A DNA stretch of 64,000 bases from Alphaproteobacteria bacterium. Lineage in GTDB: Bacteria; Pseudomonadota; Alphaproteobacteria; GCA-2731375. The position numbers were made by a program, and so were the translations under genes. The notes beneath the pieces were generated by a model. The model was not told the DNA's origin, did no database searches, and was given only the letters and a program-made list of their open reading frames with translations. Below, in pieces: positions 1-10,146 of this stretch (the stretch's first letter is position 1; each line of letters opens with the position of its first letter). The stretch spans positions 1-64,000 of the forward strand of contig CBDDBZ010000030.1 in assembly GCA_965225945.1 (NCBI GenBank), written 5' to 3'.

Positions 1-970
1 TCGACAATAGAGACGAGCTTTGACCGCCAGTTGTTCTAAACGCAATCAATCCGCATGAGTTGGCTTCTCCAAATACCTCAGCAAGCACTTCGCGAACGTG
101 GTGCAAATTGTCATCCGATATCTGGACAAATATCGAGCCATATTCAGAAAGTAACTCCTTCGCCATCAGTAGACGATCACGTAGATATGTCAGGTAAGAG
201 TGCAGCCCGAGTTCCCACGTGTCCCGGTAGGCTTTGACCATCTCTGGCTCGCGAATCATTTCATCGTCGGAACCGTGCTTGACGCTGTTCTTGCGGACGA
301 AGGGCTGGAAGTTCGATCCGAATTTCACCCCATAGGGCGGGTCGAAGTAGAGCATCTGCACCTGACCGCCCATGCCCTCGTATTCGAGGAGGGAGTTCAT
401 CACCTGAAGTGAATCGCCCAGCACGAGCCGGTTGGTCCACGGACCCTTGTGCTTGTAGGCGTCGAGCTTGTCGGCAATGTCGAGGTCAACGTCACCGAAG
501 AGATCGAGCGTGGTGCCGCGCGCCTTGTGAGATTGCAGGGTCTCCAGAATCGCCTGCGTGGAATGGCGCTCGTGGACGAAGAGCGGCAGCGTTGGCACGC
601 TGACCTGCTGTCGCTCAGCCTTTCCGCTCCAGTTGAGGAAGGGTTTGGTCAGGCTGCGCAGCCGCGCGGCGCACTGTGAGAGCGAGGTGAAGCGCTCCTC
701 GGTCCCCTGCCAAACCCGCGGTTCGGCGAAAACCTTGTCCTCTCCCTTCTCGGCGGCCTCGGCGATCATTCCGAGCAGCCACTCGGCGAAAGCCCGATCG
801 GCGCTCTCGTCCCAAAAAAGCTCCGGCGCAAGACTGGAGTCGTAGCGGTAGGTCCGGGGCGGCTTCTTGTGGGCAAACTGCGCCTCGACGCCAACGTCGG
901 GGCGCTGCACGGATTCCTGCGTGTGCTTGTAGGGAGATGCTGGAGCTTCTCGAATCTCTTTCTGCGCCAT
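1..970 (-). CDS. Site-specific adenine DNA methyltransferase, type III RM Mod-like (5' part; runs off window)
   Basis: Not in the ORF track because it is edge-truncated. Manual translation from ATG 970: MAQKEIRE...YRYDSSLAPEL...WTNRLVLGDSLQVMNSLLEYEGMGGQVQMLYFDPPYGVKFGSNFQPF...AYRDTWELGLHSYLTYLRDRL...GSIFVQISDDNLHHVREVL. DPPY motif IV is present. Confidence 0.85.
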   Translation of the reverse strand, partial: MAQKEIREAPASPYKHTQESVQRPDVGVEAQFAHKKPPRTYRYDSSLAPELFWDESADRAFAEWLLGMIAEAAEKGEDKVFAEPRVWQGTEERFTSLSQCAARLRSLTKPFLNWSGKAERQQVSVPTLPLFVHERHSTQAILETLQSHKARGTTLDLFGDVDLDIADKLDAYKHKGPWTNRLVLGDSLQVMNSLLEYEGMGGQVQMLYFDPPYGVKFGSNFQPFVRKNSVKHGSDDEMIREPEMVKAYRDTWELGLHSYLTYLRDRLLMAKELLSEYGSIFVQISDDNLHHVREVLAEVFGEANSCGLIAFRTTGGQSSSLLS

Positions 971-1214: not shown

Positions 1215-1526
1215 CTATGCCGCCTCCCCCGTGCCGGCGGCGCCCTTCTCCACCCGCCGCTTCAGGATACCGGACGGCCGGAAGACCGCCACCCGGCGCG
1301 GCGAGACCGCTGCCGGTTCGCCCGTTTTCGGATTCCTGCCCATTCGCGGCCCCTTGTCGCGCACCATGAATGTGCCGAACGAGGAGATCTTCACCGTCTC
1401 CCCGGCCGTCAGCCGCTCCGCGATCGTCTCGACGAAGCCCTCCACGAGCGCCGCCGGCTCGTGGCGCGTCACTCCCACTTCGTCGCGGACGGCATCCATC
1501 AGATCGGCTTTCGTCACCGTCGCCAT
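1215..1526 (-). CDS. Integration host factor alpha-like / HU family DNA-binding protein (island copy)
   Basis: MATVTKADL...VKISSFGTF..R.K..RMGRNPKTGE...PRRVAVFRPSGILK is the HU/IHF signature. The real start is the internal ATG at 1526 of ORF 1215..1925. Confidence 0.85.
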   Translation of the reverse strand: MATVTKADLMDAVRDEVGVTRHEPAALVEGFVETIAERLTAGETVKISSFGTFMVRDKGPRMGRNPKTGEPAAVSPRRVAVFRPSGILKRRVEKGAAGTGEAA

Positions 1527-1712
1527 GGCGGAATATCCCTTCCATCCCCACCACCATATTCGGCTCGCAAGACCGGTCAAACCGCGGGTTTGCCGCCGTG
1601 GACGGCTGCGCCGGTGGCCAAAGTCTCGGCGATGCCTCCCAGGCCGGCCTGTCGTTCCGGAGACAAGGAGACACCGCCGCCCCGGTCGTCTCTCAGGCTC
1701 GCACCGGGACCC

Positions 1713-1964
1713 TTGGGTCCGGGCGCGGATCCGAAGAAGGTCGAGATCGAGGTCAACGGCAACAAGGTCGAGATGCTCGAAGGACCGGCGTCGGGGCAGG
1801 AGATCAAGCAGGAGGCAATCAGGCAGGGCGTCGGGATCAAGGAGAACTTCGTTCTCCAGCAGGAGATGCCGAACGGCACCGGCAAGGTCATCGGCGACGA
1901 CGACAAGGTGGTCATCCGCGAGCATCTCAGCTTCACAGCCATCGAACCCGACGACAACAGCTGA
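1713..1964 (+). CDS. Ubiquitin-like (beta-grasp, multiubiquitin-type) protein ending in -PDDNS
   Basis: KKVEIEVNGNKVEMLEGPASGQEIK..A...G.....FVL........KVIGDDDKV.I.....F fits the pattern of prokaryotic multi-ubiquitin domains. The stop overlaps the next ATG (TGATG). Start uncertain (TTG 1713 or ATG 1632). Confidence 0.7.
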   Translation: MGPGADPKKVEIEVNGNKVEMLEGPASGQEIKQEAIRQGVGIKENFVLQQEMPNGTGKVIGDDDKVVIREHLSFTAIEPDDNS

Positions 1965-2365
1965 TGCGGGGTGACGGTGTGAAGGCGGAGATCGGCGAGG
2001 CTATCGAGGAGTTGAAGCGGGCCTTTCCCTCCTCGGAGTTCACGGTGAGCGAAGACGGGCAGGGAGGGGCCCGCGTGGTGGTCGAGTGCGTGGCAATCGG
2101 CGCGCGCTACGAGCCCGAGCAGTCCTGGCTGGGGGGCCACATTCCCGCTCAGTATCCCTATGCCGACATCTATCCGGTGTTCATGGACGCCGCGGTGCGG
2201 CGTCGGGACGGCAAGGCCTTCGAGGCGCCGATCACGGCGGGGCATAAATTCTGCGGGCGCCCGGCAATCCAGATTTCCCGGCGGAACAACCGGATCCAGA
2301 ATTCCGGGCAGACCGCCGTGGCCAAGTTCCTGAAGATCCTCGACTTCCTGGAAAAGGTCCAATGA
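1964..2365 (+). CDS. Prokaryotic E2/UBC-fold protein (Prok-E2 family E-like)
   Basis: 133 aa with ..IPAQYPYADIYPVF (UBC P-x-x-YP motif) and QISRR. Lies between the Ubl and E1 genes with overlapping stop/start codons on both sides. Confidence 0.65.
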   Translation: MRGDGVKAEIGEAIEELKRAFPSSEFTVSEDGQGGARVVVECVAIGARYEPEQSWLGGHIPAQYPYADIYPVFMDAAVRRRDGKAFEAPITAGHKFCGRPAIQISRRNNRIQNSGQTAVAKFLKILDFLEKVQ

Positions 2366-3742
2366 AAAGCGAACCGACATGCGACGTCGCGATCAGGGAA
2401 GGGGATCACGACCGCCTGATGGCGCATCTCTATCCGGGCGACGGCGACGAATACGGCGCGGTCCTACGTGCGGGGGTCGTGTTCTGCGGCGCCGGGCTGG
2501 GGACGGACTCGCCTGCTGGTCAATGCTGTGGAGCCGGCGCGGGTGGGGACGGACTACGTTCCCGGAAAATACGGCTACCGCGCGCTGGCGCCGACATTCA
2601 TCCACCGGCAGATCGTGCGATGCCGGGACGAGCGCATGGCCTACCTGGCGGTGCACAATCACGGTTCGGACACGTCGGTACGCTTCAGCAAGGTCGACAT
2701 GGACTCGCACGAGCGAGGCTATCCGGCATTGCGCGATATCGGCAAGGGCGTGCCGGTGGGCGCGCTGGTCTTCGGGCGGCGTGCGGTGGCTGCGGACATC
2801 TGGATGCCGGACGGCACGCGCCGGGCACTCGGGTCGTACCGAATTGTCGGACGCACCATCAGAAGGCTCTATCCCAACCCTCAGCGGGCGACTAAGGCGG
2901 GCACCGGCTTCGATCGGCAGGTGCGCATGTTCAGCAATGCCGGGCAGGCCGTGCTGGGGGCGAGTAAGGTAGCGGTGGTGGGGCTGGGTGGCGTCGGCTC
3001 CATGGTCGCGGAATATCTGGCGCGCCTCGGCGTCGGACAGCTTGTTCTGGTCGATATGGACGTCATCGAGGACACTAACCTGTCCCGGGTCGTCGGCGCG
3101 ACGCCCACGGATGTGGTGACCGGGAAGTTCAAGACGCAGATCGCCGTGCGGCACCTGCGGGAAGCAAGACCGGATATTCGCGTGGACGCGATACGGGACG
3201 ACGTTGCGAACGACGCGGTCGCGATGAAGCTGCGGGACTGCGATTTCATTTTCCTGGCAGCGGACTCCATGCGGGGCCGGCTCGTGGTGAACGCGCTGGT
3301 GCACCAATATCTGATTCCTGCAGTGCAGATGGGCGCCAAGATCAGGCCGGGCGCGGGCGGCTCGATCGAGGAGGCCATGTGCGCGGTCCGGCAGCTGCGG
3401 CCGGGAACGGGGTGCCTCTGGTGCAACGGGCTGATCGATGGAACGCAGCTGGCGATCGAGGCGAAGACGGACGAGGAACGCAAGGCCCAGGACTACGGTG
3501 TAAGGGAGCCAAACCCCAGCGTGATCACGCTCAATGCCGTGGCTGCGGGACAGGCGGTAAACGACTTCTTGTTCGACTTCCTTGATTTGCGGTCGGAGGG
3601 CGGCGATGCGGTGTATCAGCACCATCATTTTCTGCGGCATACCGTGCAAAACGTGGTTCCTCGCAAGGACCAGAACTGCCGGGAGTGTGGAAGACGGCTG
3701 GGCATGGGCGACGCGATAGACCTGCCGACAGCGACGGGATGA
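2362..3742 (+). CDS. JAB/MPN peptidase - ThiF/E1 adenylation enzyme fusion, with a +1 frameshift near 2470-2505
   Basis: The N-terminus (HLYPGDGDEYGAV, JAB Glu) is in the 2362 frame and the rest is in the 2468 frame. JAB motif: HNH.......FS..D. ThiF motifs: GLGGVGS, DMD.IEDTNLSR, K, CDFIFLAADS, Zn pairs CLWC and CREC. Confidence 0.85.
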
Positions 3743-3865: not shown

Positions 3866-4591
3866 GTGAGTGAAAGGGGGGCGGGCGGCAGCCGTGACGG
3901 CGAGCGCCGGTGGTTCGAGTCACTGCCGGACGGCCGGTCGTGGGCGGCGCTGTGGAGCGCATACGTCCGTTGCGGCTGTAGGGCAATCTGGTCCATGGAG
4001 GCTGAGTGCCCGGTTTGCGGCAAGGCTCCGCCGAAAGAGGAGTGGGTGGTGGTGCGGGACGCCGACGGCACCGAGTACCGCGTGCCTCCGGTGTTCAACG
4101 GCGCTGACGGCAGATACGCGGACTGGACATGGCTGCGCATGCTGGAAGGGGAATGGCGGAGGCCGGTGGACGCGGGGCTGTACGGTTCGATCCCTGAGGC
4201 CCATCGGCCGTCGGCGCGCGCCATCGTGGTGCTCGTGTTCTGGAGCTACTTCGAGACGCGTATCGAGAGACTGTTTCGCGAGACGGCGAATGTGGTGCCT
4301 GCGCAGGTGTTGGATCATCTCCTGGAGCGCCATTCCTCTGTCGGCGCGCGGATGGACAGGCTCTACAGGGTGGTGTTCTCGTCTACCTACCGGGCCGATC
4401 TCAATAACCTTGGATATGGGTGCGTGGCGGCGCTGCTCAAGAAGGTGGAACAGTGCCGAAACAGGTTCACTCACGGCCACCCGGAAGCGATCGACGACGC
4501 GCTGGTCGAAGAGCTGGTGGCGGGCCTGAGGGATGAGCATGAGGGTTGGATCGCCGTGTTCAACAGGCGTCTAAGCGAGGCTCGCAAGTGA
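3866..4591 (+). CDS. Zn-finger plus HEPN-like (Rx4H) domain protein, putative RNase effector
   Basis: N-terminal CGC...CPVC. The helix VLVFWSYFETRIERL is followed by RNRFTH (R-N-x3-H). Confidence 0.55.
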   Translation: MSERGAGGSRDGERRWFESLPDGRSWAALWSAYVRCGCRAIWSMEAECPVCGKAPPKEEWVVVRDADGTEYRVPPVFNGADGRYADWTWLRMLEGEWRRPVDAGLYGSIPEAHRPSARAIVVLVFWSYFETRIERLFRETANVVPAQVLDHLLERHSSVGARMDRLYRVVFSSTYRADLNNLGYGCVAALLKKVEQCRNRFTHGHPEAIDDALVEELVAGLRDEHEGWIAVFNRRLSEARK

Positions 4592-4834: not shown

Positions 4835-4995
4835 CGGGCGGCGGACAACGGGTTGGGCGTGGCCGGTGAGTCGGACGTTCAATACGACTATTGGCCTCTT
4901 CCAGGATACCCGACAGCGGGGGCCCTCGGAGGCTTATTCCAGAGACCGTGGCAGCATCGGACAAGGCGACCGTGAACAGGAGGGACCGGATAATC

Positions 4996-5901
4996 ATGTG
5001 GGCCGAAGCTATTGAACTCGTGTCGCAGCAAGTGGTGGCCATCCGTACCCTGGAGTGTTCCGGAACCGGTTTCATCAGCTTCGGTCGACAGCGCGGGACA
5101 CGAATCGTTGCCACCGCCCAGCACGTGATCGAAGCCGCAATTGACAACAGCGATCTGATCCAGATTTCGAGTGGTCGACGGATCCTGACATTGGGAAACG
5201 CCGGCCTGAATATGCGGTTTCTCCACAAGACCACTCCGGGCGTGGACTCGGCCATTTTAGCCTTCATTACGCAGGATCTTCCTCGGCCGGCCGTTCCTAT
5301 CTTGGACCCTGCGAGTCCTGAGGAGGTGGAACAAGTCAAGGTAGGCACGGAGGTCGGGTGGCTCGGATTCCCGGCGCTAAGGACCGTTGCTGAGCGGCTC
5401 TGCTTCTTCTCGGGCAGGATCAGCCTAGTCGATCCCGCTGGTCGATTTCTCCTTGACGGAACGAATGTCCAAGGGTGCAGCGGCGGTCCGGCTTTCTGCG
5501 TTACGCCTGACGGCCCTCGGATTATCGGAGTCGTCACAGGCTACTTCCCCAACGAGAACTTCAGGGGGGCTATGGGCGAACGCGCTGGCTTGGCCCCTGG
5601 ATTGACGGCGATCGCGGACGTTACCAACTACAAGAGTCTCGAGGGGGCTCTCAACCAGCTTCCCGACAACAAGGGTGAGGAGAAGACGGCCAGCATCAAA
5701 CTCGATAAATGTGCCAAGTGCGGGGCCGATCTCGTGAGGGGGACATACCCTGGAGATGATCAAACACCGACACTGCTGTGTAGCGAGGGCTGCGGTCCCT
5801 TGATCGACTTGATAGATGAAGTTTTGGTCAACGCATTTCCTGGTGGAGTACGTGGGTTCAATCAAATGCTTTACGAGGGGCACGAGCGTGTCATGAAGTG
5901 A
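4996..5901 (+). CDS. Trypsin-like serine protease with C-terminal Zn-ribbon-like domain
   Basis: Catalytic triad motifs ATAQHV, DSAIL, GCSGGP. The C-terminus has CAKC...CSEGC. No signal peptide. AGGAGG lies upstream. Confidence 0.8.
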   Translation: MWAEAIELVSQQVVAIRTLECSGTGFISFGRQRGTRIVATAQHVIEAAIDNSDLIQISSGRRILTLGNAGLNMRFLHKTTPGVDSAILAFITQDLPRPAVPILDPASPEEVEQVKVGTEVGWLGFPALRTVAERLCFFSGRISLVDPAGRFLLDGTNVQGCSGGPAFCVTPDGPRIIGVVTGYFPNENFRGAMGERAGLAPGLTAIADVTNYKSLEGALNQLPDNKGEEKTASIKLDKCAKCGADLVRGTYPGDDQTPTLLCSEGCGPLIDLIDEVLVNAFPGGVRGFNQMLYEGHERVMK

Positions 5902-6332: not shown

Positions 6333-7980
6333 GGGTGTGGGTCTGGTGTGGCAAACGTAAGTTATTGAAGTAGCGCGATTTCGCTGTCGAAACGGACGGC
6401 CGGAAACGGGGTTTCGTGACAATCGGCCATCCCAGGGGAGGATTTTGTCACGCCGACAGGGCCGAGCGGGGGAAGGTGGGGACGCTCCGTACCGCAAGAG
6501 ACGGTAGGATGCTGTGTGGAGAAGCCCAATATCAGGAGCGTTCCCATGTCAGTATCCCGCTCTCCGGCACCCTCGTCCATCGATCTTTCCGGCGTGCCTG
6601 CCCGGGTCGCCGAGGCGGTCGCCCAGGTGGTCGCAGTCTGTCACGAGCAGTTTCGCTCGGACCCGTGTCCCGAGGCGTTCGAGGAGGCGGAGTTGCGGGT
6701 GCGTGAGACCATGAACGCGCTCGCTTGTGAGCTTCTGGGCGCCGTCATCGAGAAGCGGGACGACGGCGCGTCCCGGATCGAGCGGGACGGGCAGAGCTGG
6801 TTCCGGGTGGCGGCGACGCCGAGGACGATCATGACCTCGCTCGGTCCGCTGACCTACCGGCGTGCCCGTTACCGTAGCGGCGCAAGCGGGTCATCGCCGG
6901 TGCCGGTCGACGAGAGCCTGGGTCTCGTCGACGATTACCTGACGCGGCCGGCGGCTCAGCTCGGTCTGCTGATGATGGGTCACTGCACGGCGCGGGAAGC
7001 GGCGGCGTTCTTTGCGAAGATCGGCGGCATGACGCCGTCGGTGAGCACCCTGCAGCGCCTGACACGGACCATGCACGAGCGCTGGGAGACCCTCGGCCCC
7101 GAGACGCTGGACAGCATCCGTGACGCCGAGGGCGTACCGCACGAGGCGGTCAGCGCCTCGGTGTCGCTCGACGGCGTCATGGTGCCGCTGCGGGCCGGCG
7201 AGGACGGCCGTGCCGAGGCCTCCTGGCGCGAGGCCGCCTGCGGCACGGTTTCCTTCCACGACGCCAGGGGCGAGCGTCTGAAGACCCTCTATCTCGGCCG
7301 CATGCCGGAGAGCGGCAAGGTCACACTGAAGGCGCAGCTCGCAAGCGAAGTCGCACATATCAGGCAGCTGCGCCCCGACGTCAGGATCGTCGCTATCGCC
7401 GACGCCGCCGCCGACAATTGGACCTTCCTGGAGACCCTGTCGCCCGAAACCGAGGTCATCGACTTCTGGCATGCCTGCGAACATCTCCGAACGGCATCCG
7501 ACCATGCGGTGGTCTCCGACTGGTTCGAGAGGTACCGCGAGGTTCTGCGTCACGACCCCTGTGGCGTCGACAAGGTGATCCGGGCGTTGCGCCACCTTCG
7601 TGATAGCGCAAAGCCGGATCGGGCCGAGATCGAACGGGAACTCGCCTTCTTCCGCAAGCACCGCCAGCGCATGCGCTACCACGCCCTGAAGGCAGAGGGC
7701 GTCGCCATCGGCTCAGGCGTGGTCGAGGCGGCCAACAAGACCCTGGTGACCCAGCGCATGAAGCGCTCCGGCATGCGCTGGCGGATCGCCAGCGGGCAGG
7801 CTGTGCTGACCTTCCGCGCCCTGATCAAATCCGCTCGCTTCGACCGGGCATGGAAGGCCATCATCGGCGCAACCGACACACCGGCCAACGACAACATCAA
7901 TCCCTGTGCCGTCATCGCCATCGCTGCCTGAACTCAATGAACGAAGCCGCTGCTATCAATGCCATACGAGACTCGCACCC
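6333..7980 (+). mobile_element. ISKra4/ISLre2-type insertion sequence (IS256 superfamily)
   Basis: Imperfect 20-bp terminal IRs gggtgtgggtctggtgtggc / gccatacgagactcgcaccc enclose one transposase. No target duplication. Confidence 0.75.
6546..7931 (+). CDS. ISKra4-family transposase
   Basis: Motifs SLDG, ADAA..NW, DFWHACEH, IGSGVVE.ANK...RMKRSGMRW. RBS aggag lies before ATG 6546. Confidence 0.8.
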   Translation: MSVSRSPAPSSIDLSGVPARVAEAVAQVVAVCHEQFRSDPCPEAFEEAELRVRETMNALACELLGAVIEKRDDGASRIERDGQSWFRVAATPRTIMTSLGPLTYRRARYRSGASGSSPVPVDESLGLVDDYLTRPAAQLGLLMMGHCTAREAAAFFAKIGGMTPSVSTLQRLTRTMHERWETLGPETLDSIRDAEGVPHEAVSASVSLDGVMVPLRAGEDGRAEASWREAACGTVSFHDARGERLKTLYLGRMPESGKVTLKAQLASEVAHIRQLRPDVRIVAIADAAADNWTFLETLSPETEVIDFWHACEHLRTASDHAVVSDWFERYREVLRHDPCGVDKVIRALRHLRDSAKPDRAEIERELAFFRKHRQRMRYHALKAEGVAIGSGVVEAANKTLVTQRMKRSGMRWRIASGQAVLTFRALIKSARFDRAWKAIIGATDTPANDNINPCAVIAIAA

Positions 7981-8804
7981 CTTAGGGATCGGGAGGCTGG
8001 AAGGCTACAAGCCCAAGAAAGGACAGACATTCCCTCGGTTCCGGGAAAAGGAAGTCGAGCTTGGGGAGCTTCTTTGTCGCATCGGCTATCCGCTCCTGCA
8101 CAAGGATTTCCGCGTGTTCGAGTCGAAATGGTCTCCCGACAAGGGCTTCCAAACAACGATGCAGGACGCTGCGCCTCCCGTGTTTGTGAACGAGGCGCTA
8201 GTCAGCAGGTTTGTGCGCTTGATTGACCGGATTACCGGCAAGGTCAGTGGGTGTTGGATCGAGACGAGTTCTCCGGGGCTCAAAGGACAGAGCGGCGGAC
8301 CGTTAACGGACAGTGTCGGGTTGATTTGTGGCATCCAAGTCAAAACGACGCCATATCCACTTGGTTTCAGAGATAACGAAGTCCTGTACGTCGGACGTGC
8401 AGTGCGCGTCGACACGGTTCGCAATTTTCTCGACGTACACAACGTCGAGTACCTCACCGGATAAACGACGCTCGCAGTACGTCGACGGCTAGGAGGGGTT
8501 GCACAAACGAATTCTATGGTGAACTGACCATAGTGCTTGGCGGCACGCCATCTTTGCCGGATTCCGGGGAACTGGCCGCGCTCGTCGACACGGTCGAGCA
8601 CGGACTTGCCGGACGAAACCGGGTCGGGCTGAGCAACACGCCGCAAGGAATCGTGTAACCATACGCCGAGGATCGCGGAATACTTGGGCCTGAGTTTGAC
8701 GGCAGGCAGTGCCGGTTGAAGCTCAGGGGTGTTGACGGTTATCGACCGGAATCCTGAGGCCGTGGTCAAGGCGCTAGGCGAGGGTGGCGACGGCGGACGG
8801 CGGG

Positions 8805-9340
8805 TCATTTCCTCGCGTCGTGAGAAGCGTGCGCGTCATCGGGAGTTAGATTCCCCCCGATGCTCCCGGTGATCCGGGCCGCGGCGGTCTGGATCGAGTC
8901 CCGCGCCAGGTGCGCATATCGGGCGGTCGTCTGGACCTGGGTGTGACCAAGCATTTCCGATCACCGGCAACCCCTCGCCGAGCGCCAGCGCACGCGACGC
9001 AAAGCTGTGTCTCAAATCATGGATCCGCACGTCGGCGAGCTCGGCCCGCGCCCGGATGCGCCGCCAGGGGTGCTGAAGGTCGGTCAGATGGCTGCCCGGC
9101 TTCCGGCCCGCGATCACCCACGGGTTGTCCTCGTCGCGGGGCAGGCCCTCCAGCAGCCGCGCCGCAGAGGGCGCCAGCGGCACCGCGCGCCCCCCAGTCT
9201 TGGTGTCGGGAAGCCGGAGTTCGCCCGCATCCAGGTCGACATGCTCCCACCGCAGCTTCTGAATCTTCGACAACCGGCAGCCCGTCAGCATCAGAAGTCG
9301 GATCGCCGCCACCGCAGAGCGGGTCGCTGGAGGCGTCTCG
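8805..9340 (-). pseudogene. Tyrosine recombinase/integrase catalytic-domain fragment (5'-truncated, frameshifted)
   Basis: LLMLTGCR...KTG...HDLRHSFAS, then a frameshift near 8955; the alternative frame gives LGHTQVQTTARYAHL ending at TGA 8805. Confidence 0.85.
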
Positions 9341-9344
9341 GATC

Positions 9345-10146
9345 GGTCGTCAGCATCAACGGCTTCATGTTCTACGACCATCTGTGCGGGGAGTGGGGTG
9401 CCGGAGCCGTCGACCTGGTGGTCCATGTGCACCGATGCTCCGTGCCGGACGCGCTGGCCTTCCTCTCGGAACTGCAGGGCCACTCCCGCCGCACGGCACA
9501 TCGTCTCTGCCCACGGGCGCCGAGCCCGCTCAAGCCGGCGCGATCGCAGCGTCAATGGCCGCAGGTGCAACGCTACCTCGTCGACCAGCGCGGCCTCTCG
9601 CCCGTGCTCGTCGCCTTGTGCCGAGACCTCGGCCTCCTCTACGCCGACCACCAGGCCAACGCCGTGTTCCTCTGCCGAAATGCCGCCGGTGAGGAAACCG
9701 GCACCCAGATCCTCCCCACCGGCGCTCAGCGTTCAGGGTCGGGCACTGCCAGAAAACTGGCGCCTTCCCCGCTCACGCCGGGAAGCTTCTGGATGTCCTG
9801 GGGGACCGAGTGGCAGCTCACCGTGCTCATCGCAAAGAACGCCATCGACGCTCTGTCGGTCCTATCCCTCCAGCTCGTGCCGGCCACGCGCAAGGGATGT
9901 GCCGTGGTCTCCACCGCTGCCGTCCCGGCAACCATCCCCATCTGGATCGAGGCCTGGAACCCCCGCCGAATCTACTGTGCCTACGACGCCACGCGCGACG
10001 GCGATGACGCCGCGCAACGGCTACTCCGAAGGGACAACAGGGTCGTCCGCGTCCGGCCCGCCCTCGACGGCGACGACTGGAACGACACGCTCATGCGAGA
10101 CCACCTCGGCGAACCGTTGGAGACCGATGATCGGCGGATAAGCTGA
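9345..10146 (+). pseudogene. DUF3991/TOPRIM-domain primase-like protein of mobile elements, 5'-truncated
   Basis: G.GAVDLV, YL...RGL, YAD...NAVF, AIDALS, AYD...GD.AA, DWND motifs. It has no own start codon; the upstream part of the ORF is antisense integrase. Confidence 0.65.

Follow-up and report, generated by a model that had tools for sequence, protein, structure and literature searches.

Can a ubiquitin-like protein (Ubl) whose chain does not end in glycine be activated and conjugated? A C-terminal Gly is treated as a near-universal need for ubiquitin, ThiS/MoaD, small archaeal modifier proteins (SAMPs), Bil and Bub. The question is raised by a three-gene locus at positions 1713 to 3742 of a stretch of 64,000 nucleotides from an Alphaproteobacteria bacterium (assembly GCA_965225945.1, contig CBDDBZ010000030.1). 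This stretch, hereafter the window, is the first 64 kb of the contig (C30 in our numbering) in a genome of 6.27 Mb with 39 contigs and 96.55% completeness. The locus encodes a Ubl with the C-terminal tail -PDDNS, a protein resembling ubiquitin-conjugating enzymes (E2), and a JAB domain fused to an activating-enzyme domain (JAB-E1). Our reading, held with moderate confidence, is that the locus is the decayed remnant of an undescribed group, mobile and widespread, which is sister to Type I Bub and would activate its Ubl at a C-terminal Ser. The Bub (10.1101/2024.11.21.623953) and Bil papers describe processing as 'exposing the reactive C-terminal glycine'.

By direct reading, the E2 ATG at 1964 overlaps the Ubl stop (TGATG) and the JAB-E1 ATG at 2362 overlaps the E2 stop (ATGA), which confirms the chaining of the three genes described in the original prediction from the sequence. 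The last Gly of the window Ubl is G61, 22 residues ahead of the terminal Ser83. In the Ubl model it lies between the predicted strands 57-60 and 65-68, and so, as had been claimed, inside the predicted fold.

The terminal serine across the Ubl family

The DDNS end was present in 90 of 93 close homologues with 61-96% identity (89 PDDNS and one ADDNS), and the remaining three are frameshifted or truncated readings. A Ubl profile search of 1.84 billion cluster representatives returned 481 hits at E<=1e-3, and the C-terminal ends were tabulated for the best 150. Among these best 150 of the 481 representatives, 100 end in DDNS, seven in DDHS, three in DDKS and two in DDNA; the last residue is Ser in 118, Ala in eight and Gly in one, the rest being fragments, extended forms and fusions. 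The penultimate residue, most commonly Asn, differs (H, K, D, S, T or V) in at least 15 of the best 150, while the final residue stays small (Ser, Ala or Gly). All ten of the related genome loci (10/10) also carry the DDNS end. When metagenome contigs were scanned with the E2 profile, an open reading frame (ORF) ending in DDNS was located directly ahead of E2 in 78 of 80 loci; of the other two, one has DDNS followed by three residues and one is without upstream sequence. Tabulating the C-termini of homologues, which had been proposed as a check, therefore returned Ser and not Gly.

Could the Ser nevertheless be an artefact of the window, arising by mutation in this copy alone, from an error in the reads or from a stop wrongly called in a pseudogene? 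The window copy is indeed truncated and frameshifted, and its AGC codon is one transition away from GGC, a caveat raised at the outset. Across 88 operons, however, the terminal Ser codons are TCG in 21, AGC in 19, TCC in 19, TCT in 15, TCA in 12 and AGT in two (TCN 67, AGY 21), and the stop codons that follow are TAA in 32, TAG in 32 and TGA in 24. Since every one of the six Ser codons and of the three stop codons is represented at the end position, and the same end recurs in hundreds of independent sequences, the artefact is refuted, its probability being practically nil, and the AGC caveat is settled. In the 78 metagenome operons, E2 occupies all three frames relative to the Ubl (34/26/18). 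Taken together, the counts of end residues, codons, stops and frames exclude private mutation, read error, read-through and programmed frameshift. A Ubl-E2 fusion produced by programmed frameshift or read-through was a separate candidate and is ruled out by the three stops, the three relative frames and, in one related locus (L010), a 1-nt deletion that shifts the E2 start. Judged by these sequences, the Ser end is a family trait and not a private mutation.

Serine as the likely processing point

Ten of the best 150 representatives carry two to six extra residues beyond the motif; ubiquitin precursors likewise bear extra residues after their end. Five of the 150 are Ubl-E2 fusions, in which the E2 part starts right past DDNS, DDDS or DDEAS, and in Ubls with two or three domains the motif is confined to the last beta-grasp domain. 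In structural alignments, residues 10-83 of the window Ubl model lie on ubiquitin 1-76, so that Ser83 falls on Gly76, and residues 9-83 lie on residues 155-228 of the 229 of BubA. From the former alignment, the tail has the canonical ubiquitin length when the Ser is counted. We infer that the Ser behaves like the terminal Gly of ubiquitin, and that the mature Ubl would end at the Ser of the [D/E][D/E]-N-S tail.

Folds of the Ubl and the E2

The model of the window Ubl has the beta-grasp order of strands and helix with a pLDDT (predicted local distance difference test) of 85.9. Its top Foldseek match is the bacterial multi-ubiquitin protein 9d5a (E 1.3e-3), and its top VIA match is 9cd2_B (Z 10.1, root-mean-square deviation (rmsd) 2.3, 71 residues aligned); VIA Z is 9.8 against 9d59_A and about 8 against ubiquitin and NEDD8. 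The homologous Ubls are usually 102-106 amino acids (aa) long. The E2 model adopts a UBC fold (pLDDT 88.7), and its top match is Citrobacter BubB (9eae_C) with a Foldseek E of 5.8e-4 and a VIA Z of 12.8 (rmsd 2.8, 123 aligned), the next chain reaching Z 9.1. The earlier assignments of the small ORF to the beta-grasp fold and of the second ORF to the UBC/E2 type are thus borne out. Sequence searches of solved structures returned no BubA/BubB match with the Ubl profile or a natural Ubl-E2 fusion, and no BubB match with the E2 alone or the E2 profile; the Ubl and the E2 are therefore tied to BubA and BubB by fold comparison only.

Residues D68, R99, Q103, S105 and R106 are invariant in 30/30 E2 proteins. 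Cys97, the sole Cys of the window E2, is not conserved among the same 30. Precomputed Pfam matches exist to Multi_ubiq (PF14452) for many of the Ubl homologues and to Prok-E2_E (PF14462) for a few of the E2 homologues; a relative of the Ubl on a Rhizobium plasmid scores 113.7 bits for Multi_ubiq.

JAB-E1 and a model of its complex with the Ubl

The third gene had been called a JAB-E1 fusion, and this identity is upheld. The window frame 2468-3742 matches Pfam ThiF (1.7e-37), and among solved structures Citrobacter BubCD is the closest to an intact homologue of 456 aa (from locus L009; E 3.3e-24), with the JAB and E1 domains aligned in the same order and the crossover-loop Tyr aligned. Invariant in 57/57 JAB-E1 proteins are the JAMM residues E30, H95, H97, S106 and D109, the GLGGxGS nucleotide loop, D298, R303 and four Zn-binding Cys. 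The crossover-loop Tyr375, which aligns with the catalytic Tyr of BubCD, is likewise invariant (57/57), and in both L009 and the window there is no Cys in the crossover loop between the CxxC motif and P-S-V-I-T-L-N. Overall, the enzymes resemble those of Bub and appear to be active.

When the Ubl was modelled in complex with the E1 domain, the score was 0.75 (best of three controls, 0.01), a mark that 116 of 157 solved complexes and two of 215 mismatched pairs attain. Across the runs, at least 94% of contacts are in agreement and the partner pLDDT is at least 88, and Ubl tail residues 77-83 touch D298 and M300 of the E1 adenylation motif. Modelling of the Ubl with E1 and E2 had been suggested as a check; in the Ubl-E1 model the tail does meet the adenylation motif, but the pass may mirror likeness to the solved BubCD-BubA and ThiF-ThiS complexes and not binding.

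These enzymes also bear on a rival explanation, in which activation takes place at a residue other than the Ser. The JAB, or an approximately 485 aa Cys/His protein encoded upstream of the Ubl in intact copies, would trim the tail (e.g., taking the Ser off and exposing Asn), and the pathway would proceed by Asn-dependent MccB-like or succinimide chemistry or from another terminus. Solved relatives of the E1 domain include MccB (E 5e-10) and PaaA (E 3e-4), E1-like enzymes acting on non-Gly termini. Moreover, Asn is the commonest penultimate residue, and the JAB keeps its catalytic residues without exception, including in operons with an unfused Ubl. Yet BubCD is a far better relative of the E1 than MccB, and the penultimate residue varies beside a last residue that stays small, which speaks against Asn-specific chemistry. 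Extensions and E2 fusions, moreover, always start past the Ser, and the tail equals that of ubiquitin in length with the Ser included. We regard trimming as improbable.

Proposed cascade and the points against it

The Bub enzymes work with oxyesters on Tyr and Ser in place of thioesters on Cys, the Ubl being borne in this way by BubCD Tyr370 and BubB Ser333, and BubAB is cleaved by the JAB domain past the conserved Gly229 (10.1101/2024.11.21.623953). For the present clade, we infer activation of the C-terminal Ser and transfer via Tyr375 and Ser105. The E1 domain would adenylate the alpha-carboxylate of the Ser, the invariant crossover-loop Tyr would take the Ubl as an oxyester, and the Ubl would be handed to the invariant Ser105 of E2 and then moved to a target. 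In Ubls synthesized fused to E2 or with a short extra tail, the JAB would cut past the Ser, and it may also strip conjugates. The [D/E][D/E]-N-S tail would stand in for the Gly-Gly of ubiquitin. The original prediction had proposed a conjugation pathway acting on a non-Gly terminus. The conserved Ser, the points at which fusions and extensions begin, the tail length and the modelled tail at the adenylation motif all speak for it, whereas the activation step stands as a proposal. Going further, we lean slightly towards the view that, throughout the clade (hundreds of 50%-identity clusters), Ubls are activated and conjugated via the C-terminal Ser of an acidic D-D-N-S tail by a cysteine-free Tyr/Ser pair of E1 and E2.

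Several observations weigh against this proposal. The VIA ranges of the E2 (5-133 against 238-360 in BubAB numbering) place S105 within about one residue of BubB S333, an equivalence taken from the alignment ranges and a common S-R motif and not from a residue alignment. With hhalign, the E2 profile aligned to one DUF6527-linked E2 over residues 6-84 only (probability 91.6), leaving the Ser outside, while the comparison with a second gave no usable alignment (probability 0.4). The His two residues past the E2 Ser, invariant in Type I Bub, is missing, being replaced by Arg in 26/30 proteins and by V, A or I in the others; because this Type I Bub His is mostly an Arg, E2 catalysis may differ or be absent. 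Such Cys-less E2 domains were read as inactive and RWD-like by Iyer et al. 2006 (PMC1779556). In Pfam, the window E2 scores 22.9 bits for Prok-E2_E, under the cut-off of 25, and the window Ubl 22.1 bits for Multi_ubiq, under the gathering cut-off of 24.5. The complex model contained no ATP and gave contacts by residue, not a picture of the pocket at atomic detail. Where the Ubl is unfused, it does not have to be processed, which leaves the fully conserved JAB unexplained there.

The same features of the E2 lend some weight to a non-conjugating alternative. Here, the Cys-less E2 would be an inactive RWD-like binder and the tail a docking or regulatory peptide, and the E1 would adenylate something else or scaffold the control of a variable effector. 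Inactive E2-like domains have been proposed for operon type 6e (Iyer et al. 2006, PMC1779556), the Type I Bub His is missing, and the last gene of the operon varies as an effector would. On the other hand, the Cys-less Tyr/Ser Bub enzymes do conjugate (10.1101/2024.11.21.623953). No variation is seen in the Tyr, the Ser, the adenylation residues or the JAMM site, the motif is found on the last Ubl domain only, and precursor-like extensions exist. The chances of this alternative appear small to us.

Relation to Bub and other known systems

Bub operons had been collected via their DUF6527 gene (Ye, Gong, Chambers and Corbett, 10.1101/2024.11.21.623953). In the present clade, DUF6527/BubE (PF20137) was found in 0/37 downstream ORFs and in 0/9 proteins of two plasmid operons. 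The window's genome gave no DUF6527 match at its 96.55% completeness; the family was seen in 17/401 genomes of a phylum sample, so the search works. In each of five DUF6527-linked JAB-E1 operons examined (three fused, two unfused), a Gly lies in or close to the end or junction of the Ubl (5/5), for example in ...EAG-NQ and ...TFG-L, and the E2 carries W-S-x-H. The locus had been taken for a Bub-type operon, which it does not match in two defining features, namely DUF6527/BubE, which was not found, and the C-terminal Gly, which it lacks. For these two reasons, the Ser clade is read as a sister clade of Type I Bub and not as a Bub member as defined.

The clade nevertheless has features in common with Type I Bub (Citrobacter BubAB, BubCD and BubE). 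The JAB-E1 has the same length and domain order, a crossover Tyr and no loop Cys; the E2 comes nearest to BubB in fold, and its invariant Ser precedes an Arg; and the Ubl is of the multi-ubiquitin beta-grasp type, with one to three domains, fused to E2 or separate. Both occur in mobile-element and defence-like neighbourhoods, including ImmA/IrrE plus helix-turn-helix (HTH) regulators in a Rhizobium plasmid. In contrast, the Ser clade ends or joins E2 at [D/E][D/E]-N-S where Bub does so at a conserved Gly, has [I/V]-S-R-R in its E2 where Bub has S-x-H, is without DUF6527/BubE in the ORFs and genome examined, and has its own upstream protein of about 485 aa and HTH regulator. Type II Bub (BubA, BubBD, BubE) shares the Tyr/Ser oxyester logic and the multi-ubiquitin Ubl, and the top VIA match of the window Ubl is BubA of E. 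coli ZDHYS365. Unlike the Ser clade, Type II Bub has an E2-E1 fusion, usually no JAB, DUF6527 and a Gly terminus.

Operon type 6e of Iyer, Burroughs and Aravind 2006 (PMC1779556) has the same gene order and domain types, comprising a polyUbl, an E2/RWD-like protein, a JAB-E1 and a Zn-binding protein Y, the last of which the Ser clade lacks. The accessible text of that paper mentions no non-Gly terminus and calls the E2 inactive. The Bil (BilABCD) and eukaryotic ubiquitin/NEDD8 systems resemble the Ser clade in their Ubl-E1-E2-JAB cascade, Ubl fold and ubiquitin tail length, but differ in their catalytic Cys, multi-domain E1 and C-terminal Gly. Likeness also extends to Cap2/Cap3 of Type II CBASS (cyclic-oligonucleotide-based antiphage signalling system) and to MccB/PaaA, which share the E1-like adenylation of a protein or peptide C-terminus. 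With Cap2, MccB and PaaA there is precedent for E1-family enzymes working on an end that is not Gly-Gly. Cap2, however, modifies a CD-NTase (cGAS/DncV-like nucleotidyltransferase) enzyme instead of a Ubl and uses Cys, while MccB and PaaA operate without an E2 in the making of small peptide antibiotics.

In the accessible text of the literature searched, which extended neither to the PDF supplement of the Bub preprint nor to its later journal versions, no description of a Ser-ended Ubl was found. The family has Ser in place of the Gly under strong selection and retains the catalytic residues of E1, E2 and JAB. If the proposal is true, this would be the first natural Ubl cascade without a need for a terminal glycine. 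The unusual end may keep the system apart from Gly-specific E1s and from the deubiquitinases that hosts, phages and Bub or Bil systems in the same cell possess. Adenylation of the Ser would show how an E1 pocket accepts a terminal side chain and would provide a naturally orthogonal tagging system for protein engineering. It would also mean that filters on a terminal Gly miss this family and that Ubl searches should widen. With BubE missing and conserved partner genes of its own, the clade merits testing as a system in its own right for a part in defence or stress.

Decay of the window copy

The features of the locus are collected in Table 1. Ten related genome loci (L001 to L010), with E1 amino-acid identities of 82-92%, served for comparison. 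DNA similarity to them begins at 1715 and ends at 3742, or at about 4595 where the fourth gene (g4) is shared. The window Ubl is without its native ATG and first ~24 codons, and the TTG at 1713 reads as a start only by chance. The DNA ahead of 1715 is unrelated and holds an HU/IHF-like gene (1215-1535, minus strand) and a methylase fragment (2-970, minus strand); an HTH regulator, an ORF of about 71 aa and the protein of about 485 aa are missing there. In a public run (X1), a loose end at 1718 bears the upstream sequence of intact homologues.

Table 1. Features of the Ubl locus and its immediate surroundings in the window
Feature	Position	Strand	Remarks
Ubl gene, 5'-truncated	1713..1964	+	83 aa; beta-grasp domain and tail -SFTAIEPDDNS complete; stop TGA 1962-1964
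Breakpoint	1715..1718	.	Similarity to 10 related genome loci begins here
E2 gene, intact	1964..2365	+	133 aa; UBC fold closest to BubB
JAB-E1 fusion (BubCD-like), pseudogene here	2362..3742	+	ThiF Pfam match; frame shifts at insertion
10-bp insertion frameshifting JAB-E1	2499..2508	+	Absent in 5/5 aligned homologues
Variable fourth gene g4, appears intact	3866..4591	+	241 aa; candidate HEPN-like effector
Trypsin-like peptidase gene, possibly accessory	4891..5901	+	336 aa; beyond stretch common to L001, L003 and L009

The ten letters inserted in JAB-E1 recur about 44 bp downstream. Related contigs lacking the ten bases account for a depth of 30.6 of 35.4 in X1 and of 16.3 of 20.9 in a second run (X2), and the residual depth of ~5 is similar to that of the pieces identical to the window. 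X1 and X2 are public runs of one sample, maybe the window's own source, and are not independent support; no run contained more than 0.43 of the words of the stretch, and the contigs are short and mostly from relatives. A GTG at 2468 opens the downstream frame, which covers most of the JAB without its catalytic Glu plus the whole E1 domain. As the native Ubl start and promoter side were lost at 1715 and JAB-E1 is frameshifted, the window copy is probably a decayed remnant and the system non-functional here. It is single copy, as no further operon copy was found in the window or its genome.

Damage is also seen in other copies, with a split E1 in L006, a short E2 in L004 and, in L002, a database reading (L002:6464-8233) that fuses E2 into JAB-E1 (589 aa). 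Another database reading (P0096) fuses the Ubl into E2 (...DDN-K-L-M...). Both fused readings are probably indels or assembly errors and not natural fusions.

Module, neighbouring genes and mobility

An intact module comprises the protein of about 485 aa, the ORF of about 71 aa, a divergent HTH regulator, the Ubl, the E2, the JAB-E1 and a variable last gene. The ~485 aa protein lies two genes upstream of the Ubl in 65 loci (e.g., L009:3784-5274), and its Cys168 and His272 are invariant in 19/19 aligned sequences. Pfam gave a weak Peptidase_C39_2 match in 3/19 members (E ~0.06) and nothing beyond it, no PADLOC, NCBIfam or PDB profile matched, and the Atlas gave unnamed clusters and weak leads. 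This protein may be a papain-like peptidase that takes the role of the missing BubE. The HTH gene (~120 aa, Xre/Cro-type) is divergent from the Ubl in 74 loci (e.g., L024:2960-3325, minus strand), and the ~71 aa ORF adjoins it in some loci.

The last gene is g4 in 11 sources including the window. In 8/8 aligned sequences, g4 has four invariant N-terminal Cys (a Cys4 ribbon) and a C-terminal R-N-x-F-x-H-G, which we take to resemble the Rx4-6H signature of HEPN proteins. The Atlas gave a weak HEPN_RiboL-PSP lead (score 0.84), and no Pfam, PADLOC or NCBIfam model matched; we consider g4 a candidate HEPN-like effector. Otherwise, the last gene is an AbiEii-like nucleotidyltransferase in 10 loci, and further forms also occur.

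A Trypsin_2 gene lies two genes past JAB-E1 both in the window (4891-5901) and in an unrelated metagenome locus (L017:8309-9199), and the window protein has a weak PADLOC LmuA-like match (E 1.4e-5). PADLOC had no model for the Ubl, the E2, the ~485 aa protein or g4. Further downstream in the window are a 471 aa ORF (6516-7931) with a weak UPF0236 match, which we presume to be possibly a transposase, a fragment of a second trypsin-like peptidase (7850-8464) and a phage-integrase fragment (8836-9651, minus strand). The region just downstream is a decaying mobile region.

An antiviral role had been proposed from the neighbouring restriction-modification methylase. This argument is weak here, as the methylase side lies across the rearrangement breakpoint. 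Other loci are more informative. A conjugative plasmid of Rhizobium ruizarguesonis carries the clade, with a Ubl ending in ...ADDDNS, and the neighbours there are ImmA/IrrE plus HTH regulators, a conflict-system nucleotidyltransferase and an N-6 methylase. Other upstream neighbours across loci include HEPN_Swt1-DUF499 proteins, helicases and a MobA/MobL relaxase. The AbiEii-like, HEPN-like, HEPN_Swt1-DUF499, ImmA/IrrE plus HTH and conflict-system nucleotidyltransferase neighbours suggest a mobile, conflict-type system with a role in defence or conflict.

The assemblies of L001 to L010 are labelled Alphaproteobacteria, Paracoccaceae, Rhodospirillaceae, Candidatus Poriferihabitaceae, Gammaproteobacteria and Acidobacteria, and parts of the operon are present in sponge metagenome runs. 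Protein identities of 82-92% across differently labelled assemblies, together with the sponge runs, suggest recent horizontal spread of the operon. One Paracoccaceae assembly has two operon copies, both of which are damaged. In the phylum sample, the Ubl was matched in 1/400 other genomes, too few for a statement on host range. This lone match (L129, G368:C16) is a 241 aa Ubl ending in ...NHEDS, and it adjoins a UvrD-like helicase of 1121 aa with an N-terminal HExxH (ImmA/IrrE-like) segment.

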